Shown here: positions 6,818 to 39,068 of the stretch, piece after piece
Numbering within the stretch: the stretch's first letter is position 1
Layout of the letters: each line of letters begins with the position of its first letter
DNA from: Amylibacter sp.
Lineage (GTDB): Bacteria; Pseudomonadota; Alphaproteobacteria; Rhodobacterales; Rhodobacteraceae
DNA: 64,000 nucleotides
Assembly (NCBI GenBank): GCA_037625035.1
Contig: JASJIO010000030.1
Location: 11,778-75,777, forward strand
Direction: 5' to 3'
Notes under the pieces: model-generated
The model's database searches: none
The model's input: only the letters and a program-made list of their open reading frames with translations
What the model was told of the DNA's origin: nothing
Program-made: the position numbers and the translations under genes

Positions 6818-7823
6818 TTAAGCCTCGCTTACCGAAATGGGCGCAGGTATGGCGCTATATGCCAGCACAAATGCCCCAAGCACACCCGACATTAGCGAAC
6901 CAACCAACACGCCCAAACGGACAAGGTTTTGGTGTTCAACGTCTTCAAACGCCAGCCCACCAATGAACAGCGACATGGTAAAACCGATACCCGCCAACAG
7001 CGATGCGCCGTACAATTTGTGATATGTGATGCTGTCAGGTTTAATCGCGAGGCCCGCTTTAATCGCAACCCAAGGATGCAGCGCATGTTCGTAGTCTTGC
7101 AGCAACGAGCTCCCGTCTTTGCCAGGGGCCAACGGGATTGCAAACCCAAGCGCAACACCCGCAAGCGTGGCATGCACACCTGATTTCAGCACCGAAGCCC
7201 AAAGGATCAAGCTGAGGATAATGTAGGGCGCACCTTTGGTAACGCCCGTGCGGTTTAGGATAACCAAACCAGCCAAAGCCATCCCAGCAACCGTCAACGC
7301 GTAGAACGACAAAAATGATGTAAAAAACACCGCGATAATCATGATCCCGGCCAAGTCATCGACCACTGCCAACGCTAGCAAGAACGTTTTCAACTTGGAC
7401 GGAATTCGATCCCCAGCAAAGCAAGAACACCCAGTGCAAACACAATATCTGTGGCGGCAGGGATCGCCCAATCGCGCGCCTCGGCGGTGTCGATGCCAAC
7501 GATGGCGACAAAGACCAGGGCGGGGGCAACGATCCCGCCGATTGCTCCGTAAACAGGCAACGCCGCGCGGGACCAAGTGGACAACGCCTCGCGAATGACC
7601 TCGCGTTTAATTTCCAACGCAACAAGGAAAAAGAAGATCGCCATCAACCCGTCATTGATCCACAACAACAGTGGTTTTGAAATTTTGAAATCGCCAATCG
7701 CGACGGTCGTTTTCAAGTTTAGCAACGCATCATAAATCGGCGCTAAAAACCGATATTTTCAAAAAGCAAACCTAGCAAAGCACCAATTGCAAGGGAGATA
7801 CCCCCTGCCACTTCTGCTGACAT
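6818..7823 (-). pseudogene. nhaA: Na+/H+ antiporter NhaA, inactivated
   Basis: Three frame-separated pieces match NhaA ([50 protein letters not shown]). There are 1-nt deletions at the A5 run 7745-7749 and the C4 run 7411-7414 (plus-strand view). About 51 codons are missing in frame near 7064, judged against my recollection of E. coli NhaA. Confidence 0.8.
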
Positions 7824-25377: not shown

Positions 25378-26205
25378 GTGCCGATTGCGTCCATGATTGG
25401 CGTGTCGCATTCGTTGCCATTTAATGCACGATGCGCCGTATTCAGCCGCGTTGCTGGTTGGGCCATTCGATGGCTACCGCAATTCCGAATGCGCGTCGAT
25501 GAAGGCCTGAAACGGGTCTATCCGAACCTGTCGCGCCATGAACGCGGCCGCATTGCAGGTCAAGTCGGACGTAACGTTGGGCGGACGTTAACAGAAATTT
25601 TACACAACACAGAATTTGGCACAAAGCTAGATCGCTTCGTTGCACAAGGCCCAGGCCTTCAAGCACTGTTTGAAACTAAAGCCGCGGGCAAAGGCGCCAT
25701 CGTAATATCGGGTCACTTCGGCCAGTGGGAAGCGATCCGCCACTACCTCAAATCCCAAGACCTGGAAACTGGCGCCGTCTATCGCTTCAACTCAAACCCG
25801 TTTTACGAGCCCCATTTCCTTGCGGGGATCACGCAGGGTGGCGCGCCGATTGTTTCAAAAGGCAGTGCTGGAACCATGCAAATGGTCCGTCACCTTCGTA
25901 AAGGCCGGTTCTTTGCCATCCTCGCCGACCAATATGTACAAAAATCCAAAAACATCGCGTTTTTAGGCCATGAAACGCTAACCACGACTTCCTTCGCAGA
26001 GCTGGCTTTGAAATACGACATTCCACTGGTTCCTGCCTTTGGTTTGCACGATAAAAATGCGACCGACATCCACATCACATTCGAAGAACCGATCCCACAT
26101 TCCGACCCCATCACCATGATGACAGAGCTCAACGCGCGCATCGGTGCGCAAATTATCGCAAACCCCAGTCAGTGGTATTGGCTGCACCGTCGTTGGAAAC
26201 ATTAG
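25378..26205 (+). CDS. Lipid A biosynthesis (LpxL/HtrB-family) lysophospholipid acyltransferase
   Basis: 275 aa. GHFGQWE and ADQ motifs of the family. A 14-codon ATG-led in-frame leader is cut off by TAA 25375-25377. Confidence 0.7.
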   Translation: MPIASMIGVSHSLPFNARCAVFSRVAGWAIRWLPQFRMRVDEGLKRVYPNLSRHERGRIAGQVGRNVGRTLTEILHNTEFGTKLDRFVAQGPGLQALFETKAAGKGAIVISGHFGQWEAIRHYLKSQDLETGAVYRFNSNPFYEPHFLAGITQGGAPIVSKGSAGTMQMVRHLRKGRFFAILADQYVQKSKNIAFLGHETLTTTSFAELALKYDIPLVPAFGLHDKNATDIHITFEEPIPHSDPITMMTELNARIGAQIIANPSQWYWLHRRWKH

Positions 26206-26271: not shown

Positions 26272-27495
26272 GTGTTGTTGATCCGATTGCTCACACTGAT
26301 TGTGGCCTTGCCGTTGCGCATTTGGGTGCTCGCTCAACGTGTCACTGGTAAAATCACGCCTCAAACTGCCCAAAACCGACTTGGCCGTGCGACCACACCT
26401 AAACCCGATGCGCCCGTGATTTGGATTCACGCAGCCTCCCTAGGTGAGCTTTCTTCGGTGCGTCCCTTTCTCAGCCATCTTTGTGAAACACAGCCAAATC
26501 ACCGTTTGCTGATCACAACCAACAATCCTGCGGCGCTGGGTGTGGCCGCGCAATGGCCCAAAATTCCAGCTATATTACAAACGGCACCGCTTGATATTCC
26601 CGCTGTTTTACGAAATTTCCTGCACCATTGGCAGCCGGTCGCTTTTGTAAATGTTGAAACAGAAGTGTGGCCAAATCGTTTCGCAGCCCTTGCCGCACGT
26701 AACATCCCATGCATCGCCCTTAATGCGCGCATGTCCGCAAAATCCGCGAAACGGTTCACAAAAATTGGCCAATCTATTGGCCTTCACCACTTCAAGGCGA
26801 TCTATGCGCAAAACGCCAGCTCGGCCGAGAATTTTCGCAAAGTTCTAGGGCCAAAAGCAATGATCGACGGGATACCGAACTTCAAATCGATGGTAAAATT
26901 GCCCAACACCGACCCAGTCTTGGTGTCTCGTTTTGATCATAAAAACACCGTCCTTGCCGCCTCCACACACGAAGGCGAAGACGTAATCATTTTGTCTGCA
27001 TTTTCCAAATTGGCCGCAAAAGACAAAGCGTTAAAATTGATAATCGCGCCGCGTCATCCAGATCGTTGCGCAGACATTTTCAAAATCGCGCAGGACATGG
27101 GATTCACACCCAAACCGCTAAATGACCCATCCGAAACAAACATCTACATTGTCGAACAGCTTGGCCAACTCCCACAACTCTATGCCCTTTCCGCTGCAAC
27201 ATTTGTGGGCGGTTCTCTGGTTCCAGGTATCGGCGGACACACGCCTTACGAACCGATCCGCGCGGAAAGCGCGATCATCACGGGTGAATTCACCAACAAT
27301 TTCTTTTCCGAATACGCTGCATTAAACGATGCAACCGCTTGCCAAATCACAGACCCAGAAACGCTGCGCCAAGCCTTTGCAAAGGCACTAGAAAACCCCA
27401 GCCAATATGCAAATAATGCGCGAGCTATTTTGCCGCCCGTTGAAAATTCAGACGCCTTATTCGCAAAAATCATTCGGTCTATGGGGCTCACATGA
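26272..27495 (+). CDS. waaA: 3-deoxy-D-manno-octulosonic acid (Kdo) transferase
   Basis: 407 aa, GT30-like. WIHAASLGE motif and ...FVGGSLVP.GGHTP.EP. Confidence 0.85.
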   Translation: MLLIRLLTLIVALPLRIWVLAQRVTGKITPQTAQNRLGRATTPKPDAPVIWIHAASLGELSSVRPFLSHLCETQPNHRLLITTNNPAALGVAAQWPKIPAILQTAPLDIPAVLRNFLHHWQPVAFVNVETEVWPNRFAALAARNIPCIALNARMSAKSAKRFTKIGQSIGLHHFKAIYAQNASSAENFRKVLGPKAMIDGIPNFKSMVKLPNTDPVLVSRFDHKNTVLAASTHEGEDVIILSAFSKLAAKDKALKLIIAPRHPDRCADIFKIAQDMGFTPKPLNDPSETNIYIVEQLGQLPQLYALSAATFVGGSLVPGIGGHTPYEPIRAESAIITGEFTNNFFSEYAALNDATACQITDPETLRQAFAKALENPSQYANNARAILPPVENSDALFAKIIRSMGLT

Positions 27496-28118
27496 ACATG
27501 TTGTCCTATTCAATAAACCGCGCCCTAAAAGGAGATCCCTTTTTACAGAGTTTCTCTGCAGATCAATCAACCCTTTTGGGTGAACTTTCCGGCAAAACCG
27601 TAGCCGTTATTGGAAACGCTCGCAGTCTCTCAAAACAAATCCACGGCGCAAATATCGACTTATGTGATATCGTCATCCGAATGCACGCCGCACCATTGCC
27701 GCAAACTAAAAGTCACGGCACAAAAACCACGTGGCTCGCGCTTGGAATGCCCGTTGATCGGGCCATTATTTTTGAACGCGCTCCAAGCCGTTTGTTGTGG
27801 ATGGCCAAAAAACGTAAGCGGCTTAAGTATCGGTATGCGAGAGCCAAAGGGTTCTACTTGCACCCCAAATCAGATTGGAATGCGATGGCGCAAATCCTGG
27901 GCGCACCCCCAACGACAGGGGCAATGTTGATAGACCTTGCTGCCCGTTCGGACGCGCAAAAAATCAACCTTTTTGGCTTTGATTTCTTTGCCAGTTTATC
28001 TTTATCTGGTCGAAGAACCGCTGCACAAGTTCCCCACGATTTTTCCGCAGAAAAGCGCTTTGTCACAAAGTTGATGCAAAATGATGCGAGGGTTGTACTG
28101 CATGGCCAGACCCACTAA
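27492..28118 (+). CDS. GT29-like (sialyltransferase-motif) glycosyltransferase; candidate ulosonic-acid (Kdo?) transferase
   Basis: 208 aa. Motif L-like: VAVIGNARSL..HGANIDLCDIVIRMH...GTKTT. Motif S-like: PTTGAMLIDLAARS..KINLFGFDFF. Motif VS-like: HDFSAE. ATGA overlap with waaA. Confidence 0.65.
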   Translation: MNMLSYSINRALKGDPFLQSFSADQSTLLGELSGKTVAVIGNARSLSKQIHGANIDLCDIVIRMHAAPLPQTKSHGTKTTWLALGMPVDRAIIFERAPSRLLWMAKKRKRLKYRYARAKGFYLHPKSDWNAMAQILGAPPTTGAMLIDLAARSDAQKINLFGFDFFASLSLSGRRTAAQVPHDFSAEKRFVTKLMQNDARVVLHGQTH

Positions 28119-28148: not shown

Positions 28149-29138
28149 ATGGATCGAAGCGCATCAATTGCTGACGTAATAGACACTAATCTGTCAGGGT
28201 TGGAGTCATTGAAATCCGCCCTTAATACACCAGAACTTGCGACGGCATTAAACGATGCGCTGACCTTGATTGCTGACATGAAAGGCCGGTTGATCGTGGC
28301 TGGCGTTGGCAAAAGCGGACTGATCGGGCGCAAACTTGCCGCCACCTTTTCGTCAACAGGAACGTCAGCTTATTTTGTGCATCCTGCCGAAGCAAGCCAC
28401 GGCGACCTCGGAATGATTCATTCACAAGACGTGATTATGCTGCTCAGCTGGTCTGGTGAAACAAAAGAGCTCTCTGATATCCTGGGATACGCCCGTCGTT
28501 TTGGGGTTCCCGTTATTTCGATCACTGGCGGCAAGGACAGCACGTTGGCACGATCTTCGGATGCAGCACTGATTCTGCCCAAAGTAGACGAAGCTTGCCC
28601 ACACAACCTCGCGCCGACCACTTCAACCCTTTTGCAGCTCGCCATTGGTGACGCCTTGGCGATTACATCGCTTAAAATGAAAGGCTTTACAGAAGCTAGT
28701 TTTCGCAATTTTCACCCAGGCGGAAAACTTGGCGCTGCGCTCACTCCTGTCAGTGATATCATGCACCAAGGCGACGATATTCCAACAGTCGATATCGATG
28801 CTCCAATCATGCAAGTCCTCGGAGAAATTTCCCGTAAGACACTTGGCATCGTCGGGGTCACCAACAAAGATGGCACCCTTCAAGGTGTGATTACAGATGG
28901 TGATATTCGCCGTCATCTTGAAGCAAGCTCTGAAGGTTCGATGAAAGAAGCAATGTGGAACACACATGCGCACGCGTTGATGACACCTGGTTCTATTCTA
29001 ATTGAGCCAGAACGCTTAAGCGCTCGTGCTTTGCATGTTCTACAGAGCAATAAAATTTCCGCTGCGTTTGTTGTAAAAGACAATAAACCCATCGGCGTAG
29101 TCACGCTTATGCAACTTCTTACAATGGGTGTTGCGTAG
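28149..29138 (+). CDS. kpsF: Arabinose-5-phosphate isomerase (KpsF/GutQ; SIS plus tandem CBS domains)
   Basis: 329 aa. GVGKSGLIGRKLAATFSSTG and a CBS pair at the C-terminus. Confidence 0.9.
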   Translation: MDRSASIADVIDTNLSGLESLKSALNTPELATALNDALTLIADMKGRLIVAGVGKSGLIGRKLAATFSSTGTSAYFVHPAEASHGDLGMIHSQDVIMLLSWSGETKELSDILGYARRFGVPVISITGGKDSTLARSSDAALILPKVDEACPHNLAPTTSTLLQLAIGDALAITSLKMKGFTEASFRNFHPGGKLGAALTPVSDIMHQGDDIPTVDIDAPIMQVLGEISRKTLGIVGVTNKDGTLQGVITDGDIRRHLEASSEGSMKEAMWNTHAHALMTPGSILIEPERLSARALHVLQSNKISAAFVVKDNKPIGVVTLMQLLTMGVA

Positions 29139-30442
29139 ATTTGGCGCCAATCGCACCCCTAGACAGCAACGACCTGACCCAATTTGATTTGGTCGAAATT
29201 GATTCAATCAACGTCGCCTGAAGCGTTTTACTTTTAAATTGTGCGCGTATTATCGAAGCCGTTGACGTGCCGAGCAAAGCAATGCCGTTACCCGGATTTG
29301 CTAATAATTTTTGGCTTTCTTCTGCCAGCGCAATCTGGGCGACTGCGTAATCCACACCCGTTTCGCTATCTGCTGCGGACCAATGTTCAATCATCCCATT
29401 CAGTAGCGGTCCATTTTCTGTAAACCCCGCAAATGAAACAGTAACGCGTGTCCCCACGGTAAGGATCGAAACCTGCGGGAGTGGAACACGCAGATCCACT
29501 ACAAATTGCGCTGCATCGACTCCATGGATTTTCATAATCGTTTCGTCGCTATCAAATCGTGCCCCTGCTTGCACTGGCCTAATACGGCTGACGTGGCCAT
29601 TTTGCGGAACCATAAAACGTGGGTTTTCCAAATACGTTTCAAGTACCACTTTTTGCGTAATCTTTAGCGCAACATCGGAAGACAATTGTGTAATCCGCAT
29701 AAGGCGCGCGCGATCTTGTTTGTTGCGGACCATATCCAATTCATTATAGAGCGTATTCAAATCATGTATTAACGCGTTGCGTTCAAGTGCACTGTTACAC
29801 TGGCATGTGCGCGCAAAACGGGATGCACGTCATTTTTTCATTTTTCACGTGAACGCCTAAAACCATTGCAAGCTTTTGGTTCAATAGCGCCAAGCGAGCT
29901 TGCAAGACGTTTAAAGCACGCTCTAATCGGAGAAACTTAGTTAGGTCTTCGCGCTGTCCCGCAACAGAGTCTGCTTTGGCGGCGCGAACGAGCAAATCTA
30001 GTTCTTGGTCTCCATTTGTATGAATCGGAATCACCGCCTTATTTTCATCACAGGATACGGTTGCTACATTTCGCGTCTCGTCAGATCGCAAGAGGCATGC
30101 CCGCAGAACATTGGCAACGACAATGCTACGATTGATATGTGAAAGTTGCGCGCGCATCGCAGCTTCATCCAGCACAGCGACAGTTTGACCAGCGCGTACC
30201 AATTCGCCTGGCTTCACAAGTAATGCTTTCAGCGGCACACCAGCAGGTAACTGTAATTTTTTCGGTGTTTGGTTCGGTTGTAACGTCCCAACAAACCGTT
30301 CGGTCTGAGGAGCCGTTTTCAAACTGGCCAAGAAAAAACTCCCAAGGATCAAAGTCCCCAATCCTAGGACAGCCCACGTAAGCCACAAAAAGGGCAGGAC
30401 ACCAATGCGTGCTTTGGGGGTGGGATCATGCGTTTGTCGCAT
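29119..30442 (-). pseudogene. HlyD-family membrane fusion protein, frame-disrupted
   Basis: The N-terminal half (30442..29795) has a TM helix, the lipoyl-like VKPGELVRAGQTVAVLD and a coiled coil. The C-terminal half (29760..29119) has a beta-barrel/MPD-like region but lies in another frame. The junction is between about 29772 and 29838, beside T6/T5 runs. The 3' end runs 20 nt into kpsF. Confidence 0.65.
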
Positions 30443-32462
30443 TGTCGCCTACTCCAGCTGAACTACTATTTTTCTGTACATCAGCAGGAGGTCTGCCACC
30501 TGTTTTACGAGGATCATAAGTATCTAACCGGCCTAAAATAACGCACTGATCTTGTTCAACCGTAGCGTCCACTTGCGAACACAATTTAAAAACAGCGGCA
30601 AGTGGAGACAGGCGGCCTTGGCCGTCGATTTCTTCTGCTTCGGTTTCTGCGCGCGTTAAGACACCCGAGGAAACAGGTAAGTCGCGATCAATGAGCTTCA
30701 TCAAACAATGACCCTCAAAATGCTTAAACTCAAAACTCACAGATTGATGACTTAGGGGTTCAACATTTTGACACGAAAAGGCTAACAGTTCAGCCGCAAC
30801 GACACAGGCGTTTCTACGGTTTACCTCGTCTCCGTCACGCTTGAAATGAGAACGTACCCAAGTTTCTAAGTTCTCTTCGGTTTCGAGGCTCCGAGCACCC
30901 ACAAACCGCTGCCAGCCAGACGATTGACGCGCCCGAATTTCGTGAGCTGGGCCAAAATCGATGACTCGCCCTTCTTGCAGCATCAACAACTTATCACAGA
31001 AATCCAACATCGCCCGAATTTCTTTTACGACAATAAAGCTACGGCCCACACGACACTCTTGGCGCATCCGTGCAACCAAAGCCCCCATTAATTTTTCTAA
31101 AACTCCGTCCTCAGGCCAATCAATCAGATGAAGATGTGGGGACATTAAAAATCCACGCGCGAAGGCTAGTGCTTTTTGCTCAGATGCTGAAAAATGCGTC
31201 GCGTTCTTTGCGTTGCAAATTTTCTCAACACTATCGATTGCAAAAACCAGTTGTTCTAAAATGCGTTTTCCTTGGTCCAGCACCGAGCCTTGCTCAAAAA
31301 AGGCCAAATTGTCTTGACCTGACGTTGGCAAAATTAAGGGGACTGATGGAAACATTAAAGCTGGGACATGCGCAGGTTTATTTGAACGTTCCCACAAATC
31401 TGTTTCTGCCAACCGAACTGCCCCACAAACATTTAGACCCATCAAGTCATACGGCCTAATTATCGCTTGCATTAATGTGGTCTTCCCTGAACTGGGTGGG
31501 CCAATTAATCCCAGCACTTGACCAGGTTCTATTTGGAAACGAACATCCGAAAGAATGGGCTGTTGATCGCCATTGAATACAGTCAATCCCTCAACCCTCA
31601 AACCTCCCACGTGGAGCTCCACATCGGGATCAGGCGCAACACGTATCCGTGTAACAGATGCCACCAACCCGTCTTCGATTGAGTTTGTCGTCGCACCTTG
31701 GACGATGAATTTGCCAACTGCTCGGACCGACCAAAACGTTATAAGCGCAACAGCAACTGTCGGAGTAGGGGCGACAATTTCATATGCAGCTAACCAACTG
31801 CTACACCCCAAAGAAAGGATCATGGAAAACTACGCCACCGCTACGATATATCCACTCTGCAATGCGGGTGCAGTCGGGGTCTTTACTGACAGCTTAGCGC
31901 CAATTTTGTCGAGACCGGCAAAAATCGAAATTGCTCCAGATGGTAAAAAATCCCCCATCGGTTCAAGTTGCGAAAAACGCGCAAGCATTTGTGTGATACC
32001 GTATATAAAAGCCACCCCTAAAGGAATCGCTATTCCCAAAAGAGGATGCACAACCTCCAACATCACAAACACGACCATAGCAACAGCCGCTTGGGCAACT
32101 ACTGTATTTTGTTCTCTAAATACACGATACCCGACCAAAGTTTTAGCATGAGAAAACTCAAAAATCAGCAGGCCAATGATCGGAATACCACCAATTCCTG
32201 TCAATAGAATCGCCATCAACGGTTGTTGTGCACGAACTGATTAATCCGTAAAAAAGATCGTTAAAACACATATACTTAAAATACAAAGAGCAGATCTTGT
32301 CGCGAAAAACTACGACAACGGACGCGCCCAAGTTGGGGCAGATCGATCGATCATTTGTACTGGGTCGAGCAAAATATCCTGTGAATCAACCCCCGCAGTG
32401 TAGTCAATTTGAGGTTGCTCTATAGTAGTGCCCATTTTTATTGAATGCGCCTTATGCGACAT
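30426..32462 (-). pseudogene. ABC exporter (6-TM TMD plus NBD plus a C-terminal extension of about 155 aa) with three in-frame stop codons
   Basis: One continuous frame runs from the SD-preceded ATG 32462 to TGA 30426. It is interrupted by TAG 32310-32312, TAA 32241-32243 and TAG 31830-31832. Walker A GPPSSGKTT is intact. The signature (FSASEQ), Walker B (LIDWPED) and H-loop are non-canonical. Confidence 0.65.
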
Positions 32463-32566: not shown

Positions 32567-33642
32567 ATGCAGCAGAATCACTCATTGAATGGAAAAACAC
32601 GGAGCTCGGCTGGTTTTGGAACAGACGTTCTTATTGCGTCCATCCTTGTCCCAGCTGGCACCATTTACACCATCGGCAGTACGGCCAAAATCATTTTCCT
32701 AGCACAAGAAGAAGAGATTATACCCATCATCGTGGGCAGTGATCTCGACCAAATTCCGGCGTTGTTGCGTGGCAACCTCCCGACCGTAACTACCAGCTTG
32801 ACACATAACCTCCCGAAACGGGAGAACCCCCCACGTATGTGCGAAATGAACGAAGATTATTTCGAAAAAATTGACCGTGGAAAATCGCAACCTGTGGGAT
32901 ATACAGTCCGCAACGAATATGTGCAGCCATTTCGCGATCGTCGCGGGTTTCTCAATGAACGGGAATTACGCGCGGCCAAAGTTGCCTGGCACTACTTTGA
33001 AAAATTCACCCAAGAATCGACTAGCCTTGCGAATTTGGTTGGGAATTACCCTTCAACCACGATGTGGGACACCGCTTCTTATATCGTGGGAACAGTTGCA
33101 GCCTTTGAATTTTGTCTTATCGAAAAACCAGAGTTTGATCGCCGCATCATCCAACTTTTAACAACGGTAAAAGAGTTGGAATTATTCCGCAAAGAAATGC
33201 CTAACAAAGTGTACCATACCAAGACAGGTGCCAAAGTTGATTCTACAAACAAACCTGGTGAAATCGGATTTTCAGCATTGGATATCGGTCGCTTTTTGGT
33301 TTGAATGCGTATCCTTAAAAATCGATATCCACATCTTTCAAATACGGTTGATTCGGTGTTGCTCAAATGGGATTTTGTAAACACTGTTGATAAAGAAGGT
33401 CTTCTTTTTGGCGCCTACGTAGATAAGGAATCGGGCGAGACGGTTTACGCGCGAGAAGGGCGTCTTGGGTATGAAGAATACGCAGCTAAAGGCTTCGCTC
33501 TTTGGGGGTTCCGCCCATTGTTGGCACACCGTGCAGAACCGTTTTTGACGGCATCCATTTTTGGCATTCAAGTACCCTACGACGGGCGCAACCCCCGCGT
33601 CTTTCATAGCCAGAACTATGTGGTGACCGAATCATACCTACA
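32567..33642 (+). pseudogene. DUF3131-like (six-hairpin glycosidase-fold?) membrane-anchored protein with a nonsense codon, 3'-truncated
   Basis: ORFs 32567..33304 and 33305..33682 share one frame, split by TGA 33302-33304 (...GRFLV*MRIL..., probably W -> stop). Family-like sequence ends near 33642, where the IS3 fragment begins. The family assignment is from memory only. Confidence 0.5.
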
Positions 33643-38291: not shown

Positions 38292-39068
38292 CTACGCCAT
38301 CTTACTTTTCACTGTCGCCAACAAAGCATCCGATGCCTTTGCCAGCAATCCCGTATCCGACCCACAGGCCACAAACGTAAATCCTTCGTTCAACAAATCC
38401 GCCGCAAATTCAGGGTCCATCACCAACGTCCCCACAGGCACGCCCTTGGCCATCAACTTCTTCGCTGCACCCTTGATTAAGTCCCAAACCTCTGGGTCCA
38501 TCGGCTTGCGAACTTTGCCCATATCCGCCGCAATATCCGCAGGACCAAAGAACACGCCAGACACGCCGTCGACCGTGCCAATCGCCTCGGCCTGTGCCAC
38601 CGCGCTCACTGTTTCCAATTGTAAAATCACCGTGGTTTCATCGTCCACACGCACCACGTAATCAGACACACGCCCAAACTTATTTGCCCGTGTATTGCCC
38701 GAAACACCACGCACGCCGTGTGGCGGATACCGCGTCGCTGCAACCGCCTTTTCTGCTTCTTCAACGCTTTGGATCATCGGGAACAACAACCCTTGAACGC
38801 CCAAATCCATCAGCCGTTTCACCACAACCGTGTCATTCCAATCAGGTCGCACAATCGCCGTGGTTCCGCAGCTCGCAAACACCTGCAACTGCGCCAAAAC
38901 CGAATGATAATCATTCGGCGAATGCTCCATATCAATCAACGCCCAGTCAAATCCAGACGGCGCAGTCACCTCTGCGCCAAAGCCACTGCACAGGCTAATC
39001 CACAACCCCAGTTGTTTTTCGCCAGCCTTGATCGCCGCTTCAAACATGTTCTTTTCCAGTTTCATCAT
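38292..39068 (-). CDS. HpcH/HpaI-family 2-keto-3-deoxy-acid aldolase
   Basis: 258 aa. WALIDMEHSP and VRP motifs typical of HpaI/GarL-type aldolases. ATGA overlap with hyuB. Confidence 0.8.
   Translation of the reverse strand: MMKLEKNMFEAAIKAGEKQLGLWISLCSGFGAEVTAPSGFDWALIDMEHSPNDYHSVLAQLQVFASCGTTAIVRPDWNDTVVVKRLMDLGVQGLLFPMIQSVEEAEKAVAATRYPPHGVRGVSGNTRANKFGRVSDYVVRVDDETTVILQLETVSAVAQAEAIGTVDGVSGVFFGPADIAADMGKVRKPMDPEVWDLIKGAAKKLMAKGVPVGTLVMDPEFAADLLNEGFTFVACGSDTGLLAKASDALLATVKSKMA

Follow-up and report, generated by a model that had tools for sequence, protein, structure and literature searches.

A family 29 glycosyltransferase encoded between waaA and kdsD in Amylibacter sp., and its possible role in the lipopolysaccharide inner core

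The stretch of DNA considered here, hereafter the window, comprises 64,000 nucleotides (nt) from Amylibacter sp. (GenBank assembly GCA_037625035.1, contig JASJIO010000030.1, positions 11,778 to 75,777 of the forward strand), belongs to a contig of a marine metagenome with Amylibacter and Neptunicoccus as closest named relatives, and contains, at 27492..28118 of the plus strand, a gene for a protein of 208 amino acids (aa) which belongs, by sequence family and by fold, to glycosyltransferase family 29 (GT29). This gene is part of a cluster of four genes carried by the same strand. The cluster opens with an lpxL-like gene for a lipid A secondary acyltransferase (25378..26205, plus strand), the product of which matches PF03279 Lip_A_acyltrans (E 9.9e-38) and, weakly, the NCBIfam lauroyl acyltransferase models. 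[quoted passage not shown] The ATG of the GT29 gene (27492-27494) and the TGA of waaA (27493-27495) form a 4-nt ATGA overlap at 27492-27495, and 30 nt separate the stop of the GT29 gene from the start of a gene for an arabinose-5-phosphate isomerase of the kdsD/kpsF family (28149..29138, plus strand), recognized by TIGR00393 kpsF (282.6 bits for a cutoff of 203.7) and by the PF01380 SIS and PF00571 CBS domains. This isomerase catalyzes the first committed step in Kdo synthesis. A preliminary description of the locus, made from the sequence without database searches, had pointed out the ATGA coupling to waaA and the 30-nt gap to kpsF, both of which are readable in the sequence, and had named these two neighbors correctly; the lpxL-like acyltransferase gene lies further upstream. 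Scanning the operon for promoters and terminators was uninformative, terminator-like sites being fewer than expected from shuffled sequences.

The donors of the characterized animal GT29 enzymes are sialic acids activated by cytidine monophosphate (CMP). The Amylibacter protein is matched by Pfam PF00777 Glyco_transf_29 with 40.7 bits for a cutoff of 23 bits (E 2.4e-10), along residues 29-81 only, which correspond to motif L; no NCBIfam model matches it. A profile built from 32 homologues, compared with the sequences of the PDB, matches exclusively GT29 sialyltransferases, with E-values of 5e-7 for ST3Gal-I, 4e-5 for ST8SiaIII, 2e-4 for ST6Gal1 and 1e-3 for ST6GalNAc2. Motif L, at approximately residues 33-80, aligns residue by residue with residues 96-144 of ST3Gal-I. 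Motif S occupies residues 139-166, in a second stretch of the same profile search that stays below threshold, where PPTTG...LFGFD faces the YPSTG...LYGF of ST3Gal-I and ST8SiaIII. Motif VS consists of H182-D-F-S-A-E187, of the H-x4-E type, both H182 and E187 being invariant in 32 close homologues. Judging from the order of the motifs rather than from a superposition, H182 would be the counterpart of the catalytic His319 of ST3Gal-I. No (H/Y)-Y-x-(E/D) motif III is recognizable by eye along the 18 residues that separate F163 from H182 (DFFASLSLSGRRTAAQVP), which form a low-confidence loop in the structural model; bacterial GT29 proteins in general retain motif III according to Petit et al. (PMC5811610).

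Conservation was assessed over 127 representatives of the family, drawn from clusters at 50% identity. Residues G41, N42, R63, G76, P140, G143, G162, F163, D164, H182 and E187 are each conserved to at least 90%. By motif, conservation amounts to 87-99% for G41, N42, D56, D59, R63, G76 and T79 of motif L, to 91-98% for P140, G143, G162 and F163 of motif S, and to 97% and 96% for the His and the Glu of motif VS, respectively. The residues conserved at 87-99% are thus the sialylmotif residues of L, S and VS, so that the catalytic-type His of motif VS, on the conservation of which the preliminary description had made its assignment depend, is retained throughout nearly the whole set. Of the three motifs proposed there by eye, L and S are borne out by the alignment to the animal enzymes and all three by their conservation, and the suggested Pfam search gives a score above the gathering threshold.

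The confident AlphaFold2 model of the protein (predicted local distance difference test, pLDDT, 89; predicted template modeling score, pTM, 0.86) shows the GT-A variant fold of the sialyltransferases. The best Foldseek match in the PDB is 2wnf (E 1.6e-7, probability 1.0), with a query-normalized template modeling (TM) score of 0.63, and the top 24 matches are all GT29 enzymes, with query-normalized TM scores of 0.55-0.63. The best-matching structures are the mammalian ST3Gal-I, ST6GalNAc2, ST8SiaIII and ST6Gal1, in agreement with the ST3Gal/ST6Gal-type fold that had been anticipated from the motifs, and the GT42 enzyme CstII and an MptE-like HPPK rank below the GT29 structures. Residues 165-180, the sole low-confidence part of the model, form a flexible loop in which S168, S170, S172, G173 and R175 are invariant in close homologues and which may act as a substrate lid. 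The protein contains no transmembrane segment (maximum 19-residue hydropathy 1.0) and is therefore presumably cytoplasmic. The two disulfide cysteines of the animal motifs are absent, as had already been noticed, the sole cysteine, C58, being located at neither the motif L nor the motif S position, and all bacterial GT29 proteins are likewise devoid of the disulfide cysteines and of a transmembrane domain (Petit et al., PMC5811610); the disulfide and the type II topology characterize the eukaryotic branch and do not belong to the fold as such. The protein is net positively charged, with 29 Lys and Arg versus 14 Asp and Glu, and carries a basic patch K106-R110, of which K107-R-K-R110 is invariant or nearly so in close homologues. 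The gene is under purifying selection, the ratio of nonsynonymous to synonymous substitution rates (dN/dS) being 0.16 and 0.09 with respect to two orthologues (L005 and L006).

The family to which this protein belongs is large, with 2318 representatives at 50% identity for E<=1e-3 and 521 for E<=1e-10, and it is not new. The statement of the preliminary description that GT29 is eukaryotic or viral, and that a bacterial use of the fold would be undescribed, is out of date. GT29 sialyltransferase-like sequences of Proteobacteria, 19 out of 23 of them alphaproteobacterial, were reported by Petit et al. (2018, Sci Rep 8:2946, PMC5811610), with the proposal that all sialyltransferases of eukaryotes derive from the bacterial GT29. 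Their supplement holds a Paracoccus sp. protein (WP_010391983.1) which is 54% identical to the Amylibacter protein over the full length (E 5e-75), together with members from Thioclava and from a "Loktanella" that is now Limimaricola pyoseonensis (SDE00283.1), and homologues carry the NCBI name "glycosyltransferase family 29 protein". The treatment by Petit et al. is phylogenetic and reports neither gene context nor function, and the literature searched contains no experimental function for any bacterial GT29 protein. The novelty lies in the gene context, namely the waaA/kdsD operon, the coupling and fusion to GT4 enzymes and the association with a nonulosonic acid (NulO) cassette, and not in the family itself.

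Homologues of the GT29 gene are syntenic in at least 331 species, and about 80 Rhodobacterales genome loci were retrieved and analyzed. Depending on the lineage, the gene is found in distinct surroundings. In the clade linked to waaA, whose GT29 proteins are at least 56% identical to that of Amylibacter, the arrangement recQ / lpxL-waaA-GT29 occurs in 17 genome loci and in two further ones (L091 and L095); the order lpxL-waaA-GT29(-kdsD) is seen in the window and 18 related loci. The lpxL-like gene is kept 5' of waaA in every relative of this clade, and kdsD directly follows the GT29 gene in most of the loci; the order waaA-GT29-kdsD is common to 11 related loci, including outgroups of the clade that carries the NulO cassette. 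Only one subclade shows the adjacency to kdsD; most homologues occur in the order GT4-GT29-asd without nearby Kdo genes. In Paracoccus, in Cereibacter sphaeroides 2.4.1 and in many others, the GT29 gene has a GT4 gene directly 5' and asd 3', with one or two genes of the major facilitator superfamily (MFS) upstream, and a 4-nt overlap between the GT4 and GT29 genes occurs in 43 loci. An MFS gene adjoins the GT29 gene upstream in Thioclava, an lpxL-like acyltransferase gene lies directly 5' of it in two Albidovulum-type loci, and a pyruvyl-transferase-like gene occupies this position in one relative. Natural fusions also occur, P0243 (574 aa) consisting of an N-terminal GT4 linked to GT29 and P0347 (600 aa) of a GT8 linked to GT29. 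About 35 other representatives, together with P0250-P0256, are proteins of 340-400 aa in which the GT29 domain is preceded by an N-terminal extension of some 170-210 residues that matches no Pfam family. Since three lipid A/Kdo genes adjoin the GT29 gene in separate lineages, and since core-type glycosyltransferases are coupled or fused to it, a role in the lipopolysaccharide (LPS) inner core is supported, and the recurrence of lpxL-waaA-GT29 in the synteny survey that had been suggested fits such a role. Only three positions set the waaA-linked clade apart from the rest of the family, namely M64, His65 and A105. His65 (codon 27684-27686 in the window) replaces the Asn of the R-x-N of motif L, otherwise 96% conserved, and is common to the whole clade, the genomes with a NulO cassette included.

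The cassette came to light in a tblastn screen of all retrieved loci with NulO-pathway proteins. In three related metagenome-assembled genomes (L018, L014/L090 and L091), the GT29 proteins of which are 63-65% identical to that of Amylibacter, genes for NeuB/LegI, a PseF-like CMP-synthetase and a NeuC/LegG epimerase are inserted, co-directionally, between the GT29 gene and kdsD, together with a MurJ-like flippase gene on the minus strand. The NulO module around the resident kdsD extends over 6618-12375 of L018, 10637-20568 of L090 and 8334-18122 of L091. In L090 and L091, an HpcH-like gene occurs on the minus strand just past kdsD, and in L091, the fullest copy, it is followed by genes for an AsnB-like amidotransferase and a LegC-family aminotransferase; the available sequence ends inside the amidotransferase gene in L090 and just after kdsD in L018. 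No other candidate transferase was found within 10 kb in these cassette loci. In the GT29 tree, the three proteins form one clade nested among plain waaA-GT29-kdsD lineages, so that the cassette was, most simply, gained once. They differ from their relatives by three clade-specific positions only (F17Y, A38S and G85A), which implies an active site shared with the relatives that lack a cassette; a signature of donor switching was looked for in these positions and discarded, three substitutions being too few to argue for a change of donor. The same NulO module is also present in Wzy-type, undecaprenyl-linked polysaccharide clusters of Fuscovulum ytuae (L092) and of a marine contig (L096), which carry their own initiating phosphoglycosyl transferase, and its presence beside GT29 may thus reflect recruitment or coincidence. 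The unidentified proteins of the Fuscovulum cluster gave no Pfam match to a transferase. In the window, the absence of neuABC-type genes mentioned in the preliminary description holds for the open reading frames (ORFs) tested across the 64 kb, and the cassette genes give no match at 1e-8. An HpcH/HpaI aldolase gene of the window (38292-39068) was considered as a possible remnant of the cassette and rejected, as it is not homologous to the HpcH-like gene of the cassette.

Taking these data together, we favor, with a rough probability of 0.45, the idea that the protein is a soluble, basic GT29-fold enzyme of the LPS inner-core pathway, which would use as donor a CMP-NulO of the legionaminic/neuraminic type. 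The scheme that we infer for its donor and acceptor, catalytic residues, lid and membrane association would run as follows. WaaA would first place Kdo on the lipid A precursor, and the GT29 enzyme, probably peripheral to the inner membrane on its cytoplasmic side and kept there by its basic patch, would then transfer a CMP-activated 2-keto-3-deoxy-ulosonic acid, with inversion, to a hydroxyl of the Kdo region of the WaaA product, giving a third acidic ulosonic residue in alpha-ketosidic linkage. Motifs L and S would bind the CMP part of the CMP-beta-ulosonate, His182 of the H-x4-E motif could serve as the general base activating the Kdo hydroxyl, and the conserved loop 165-180, rich in Ser, Gly and Arg, may close over the substrates; the coupled GT4 of most relatives would act on the same core. 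The donor, for which the preference is marginal, would be a CMP-NulO made elsewhere in the genome, with a product that would be akin to the alpha-Neu-(2->8)-Kdo (Neu, neuraminic acid) of the lipooligosaccharide (LOS) of Loktanella rosea, a member of the Rhodobacterales whose LOS has the structure alpha-Neu-(2->8)[alpha-Kdo-(2->4)]-alpha-Kdo-lipid A (PMC3210612). The position of the cassette, exactly between the GT29 gene and kdsD in three genomes, makes a donor of the sialic acid type at least as likely as Kdo. In addition, Paracoccus denitrificans carries a GT29 homologue and is reported to make four to five bacterial-type nonulosonic acids (PMC8157484).

Several observations weigh against a NulO donor, and many of them lead towards another view, which we hold as a tentative alternative at clearly less than even odds, that the enzyme is a CMP-Kdo-dependent transferase with the GT29 fold, adding a third Kdo to the Kdo2 made by WaaA in the manner of E. 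coli WaaZ or A. baumannii KdoT, with kdsD co-transcribed for the supply of the extra Kdo. The immediate 3' gene in the window is kdsD, and the GT29 gene overlaps waaA by 4 nt on one side and stands 30 nt away from kdsD on the other; 11 related loci have the same gene order. Homologues of NeuB, of the CMP-synthetase and of NeuC are missing among the ORFs tested over the whole 64 kb, and the 6 kb around GT29 in the remaining waaA-linked loci contain no NulO synthesis gene either. The GT29 gene is conserved, syntenic and under purifying selection in at least 331 species, which fits a universal donor such as CMP-Kdo, while NulO pathways are usually patchy. The LPS of R. sphaeroides ATCC 17023 reportedly contains Kdo, glucuronic acid and threonine, and no sialic acid. 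The adjacency of the cassette represents a single evolutionary event, the same cassette serves elsewhere in Wzy-type clusters equipped with an initiating transferase of their own, and its MurJ-like flippase would not be needed by a sugar of the lipid A-core. With respect to L. rosea, no Yoonia/Loktanella rosea protein occurs among the homologues listed, and since the "Loktanella" of Petit et al. is Limimaricola pyoseonensis, the link between the LOS of L. rosea and this gene is circumstantial. The plant GT29 enzyme RCKT1 is genetically tied to Kdo transfer and required for Kdo in rhamnogalacturonan II (RG-II) (PMC11288761), Kdo transfer is reported for the Maf enzymes, which have the related MptE-like fold (bioRxiv 10.1101/2020.06.03.131540), and weak MptE-like Pfam matches occur both in WaaZ (E 1.5e-6) and in the Amylibacter protein (E 0.0028). 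In A. baumannii, the KdoIII step is followed by a GT4 sugar-acid transferase (PMC12856342), a parallel to the GT4-GT29 pairing. However, the adjacency to kdsD may merely reflect an older lpxL-waaA-kdsD cluster, most homologues having no Kdo gene nearby; the NulO cassette that three genomes carry between GT29 and kdsD, where no further transferase is close by, would have come there by coincidence; P. denitrificans, which makes NulOs, needs a transferase for them; and no sequence relation to WaaZ is detectable, hhalign giving a probability of 0.35% for the 32-sequence profile. The proposal of the preliminary description, a GT29 enzyme using CMP-Kdo on the LPS inner core, thus stands for the GT29 fold and for the inner-core synteny, but CMP-Kdo as donor is not established by a kdsD adjacency that is confined to one subclade and interrupted elsewhere by the NulO cassette. 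A broader version, which appears rather unlikely to us, is that of a CMP-Kdo-dependent or CMP-ulosonate-promiscuous transferase adding a third ulosonic acid to Kdo2-lipid A, which would be Kdo in genomes devoid of NulO synthesis and a legionaminic-type acid in those with the cassette.

The acceptor has to be weighed as well. It is improbable, in our opinion, that the enzyme transfers an ulosonic acid to an acceptor other than the lipid A-core, such as an undecaprenyl-linked O-antigen or capsule unit or another membrane glycolipid, its LPS neighbors being due to a general clustering of envelope genes. The partners of GT29 in most genomes are indeed GT4 and one or two MFS transporters instead of lipid A genes, with a pyruvyl-transferase-like partner in one relative; the NulO cassette has a MurJ/Wzx-like flippase and is found elsewhere in Wzy-type clusters; and the Leucothrix GT29 of the Petit supplement possesses a long C-terminal extension with putative KpsC-like capsule domains recognized by eye. 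The three lipid A/Kdo genes (lpxL, waaA and an lpxL-like gene) that adjoin GT29 in separate lineages argue against such an acceptor, and so does the lack of any initiating phosphoglycosyl transferase, Wzy or Wzz near the GT29 loci examined; an anionic lipid acceptor also agrees well with the strongly basic patch on the surface. A protein devoid of glycosyltransferase activity, either a relative of the MptE-like pterin diphosphokinases or an inactive remnant, is very improbable: the PF01973 MptE-like match (E 0.0028) is weak and below its cutoff, and although the M. jannaschii HPPK occurs among the Foldseek matches (E 4.6e-4), the GT29 matches are far stronger in sequence and fold, the His/Glu pair of the sialyltransferases is 96-97% conserved, dN/dS values of 0.09-0.16 were obtained, and the context consists of envelope glycan genes and not of folate/pterin genes.

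Whichever donor is found, it would provide, as far as the literature searched shows, the first function for a bacterial GT29. The transfer of either Kdo or a sialic acid-like sugar onto lipid A-Kdo, if shown, would represent a new step of LPS inner-core synthesis in the Rhodobacterales, including P. denitrificans and Cereibacter sphaeroides, and the enzyme would possibly be the one behind the Neu-Kdo core of Loktanella rosea. The identity of the donor would also indicate the ancestral activity of the GT29 fold and bears on the origin of the eukaryotic sialyltransferases. Should the enzyme be CMP-Kdo-dependent or promiscuous, the ulosonic acid transfer onto LPS Kdo would be the ancestral task of GT29, the plant Kdo transferases and the animal sialyltransferases would both descend from an alphaproteobacterial enzyme of the LPS core, and a third independent solution for KdoIII would be added to WaaZ and KdoT.

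Some other features of the window deserve to be recorded. At codon 267 of the lpxL-like gene (26176-26178), the window has a Tyr codon and the otherwise matching contig L001 a stop, with the loss of the last nine residues; in L002-L004, too, the predicted gene stops there. A conserved block on the minus strand (29119-32219) converges on kdsD and contains ORFs of 213, 215 and 129 aa, without significant Pfam match, and a protein of 465 aa that combines an ATP-binding cassette (ABC) ATPase domain with a long N-terminal part of no assignment; the ORFs of 213, 215 and 465 aa also occur in L005, L007, L012 and L020, with 40-87% identity. A DUF3131 (PF11329) gene is interrupted at 33302-33304 by an in-frame TGA, which leaves pieces of 245 and about 125 aa, and the near-identical contig L002, from another sample, has TGC (Cys) at this site and a single gene of 371 aa; the TGA is a nonsense polymorphism or an assembly/sequencing difference. 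Finally, a 252-aa ORF on the minus strand (6818-7576) partially matches, in two stretches of which the best covers 136-257, the Na+/H+ antiporter 1 profile of 374 positions, which suggests a truncated or frameshifted nhaA-like gene.

Compared to known systems, the Amylibacter protein shares with the bacterial GT29 proteins of Petit et al. the length of about 205 aa, the motifs, and the lack of a transmembrane segment and of disulfide cysteines, without any structural difference. With the animal GT29 enzymes (ST3Gal-I, 2WNB; ST6GalNAc2, 6APL; ST8SiaIII, 5BO9; ST6Gal1, 4JS2) it has in common the GT-A variant fold and the motifs L, S and VS, as well as, presumably, the inverting transfer from a CMP-ulosonic acid. 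It differs from them by an identity of only about 16-18%, by a size some 100 residues smaller than that of their catalytic domains, by the lack of a transmembrane anchor, of the L/S disulfide and of a recognizable motif III, by its presumably cytoplasmic location, and by its likely acceptor, a Kdo-lipid instead of a Gal, GalNAc or Sia glycan. The Cst-I and Cst-II enzymes of C. jejuni (GT42) are likewise bacterial and presumably cytoplasmic, share its fold superfamily (Foldseek E-values of 1e-4 to 1e-2) and add a CMP-activated nonulosonic acid to lipooligosaccharide, Cst-II making alpha-2,8 linkages; however, they possess their own GT42 motifs and their acceptors are the Gal or Sia of the outer core, not Kdo. 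The likeness is at the level of the fold, below all GT29 structures, no GT42 chain appearing among the sequence matches of the profile in the PDB at E-values up to 1. As for WaaZ (GT73) and KdoT, the likeness concerns the role that the enzyme would play as a third-Kdo transferase, that of a second enzyme extending Kdo2, followed by a GT4. Homology to WaaZ was rejected on the hhalign result given above, and KdoT of A. baumannii is an ELM1-like GT-B enzyme (PMC12856342), of a fold different from that of the GT29 protein, which is not a member of the GT42, GT73 or KdoT families. The waaZ product of E. coli K-12 (L089:4346-5197) itself matches the Pfam MptE-like family with E 1.5e-6 and 28.5 bits, below the cutoff of 34.6, which hints that WaaZ may belong to the same fold superfamily as the sialyltransferase-like enzymes. 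In Arabidopsis, RCKT1/MGP2 (PMC11288761) is a GT29 protein whose genetics indicate Kdo, and not sialic acid, as the sugar transferred, and it is regarded as a putative CMP-beta-Kdo transferase for RG-II. It differs from the Amylibacter protein as a type II membrane protein of the Golgi with a pectin acceptor, and the likeness is one of description, not of sequence comparison; in this respect, it offers a precedent for the idea, put forward in the preliminary description, of a GT29 enzyme devoted to Kdo.

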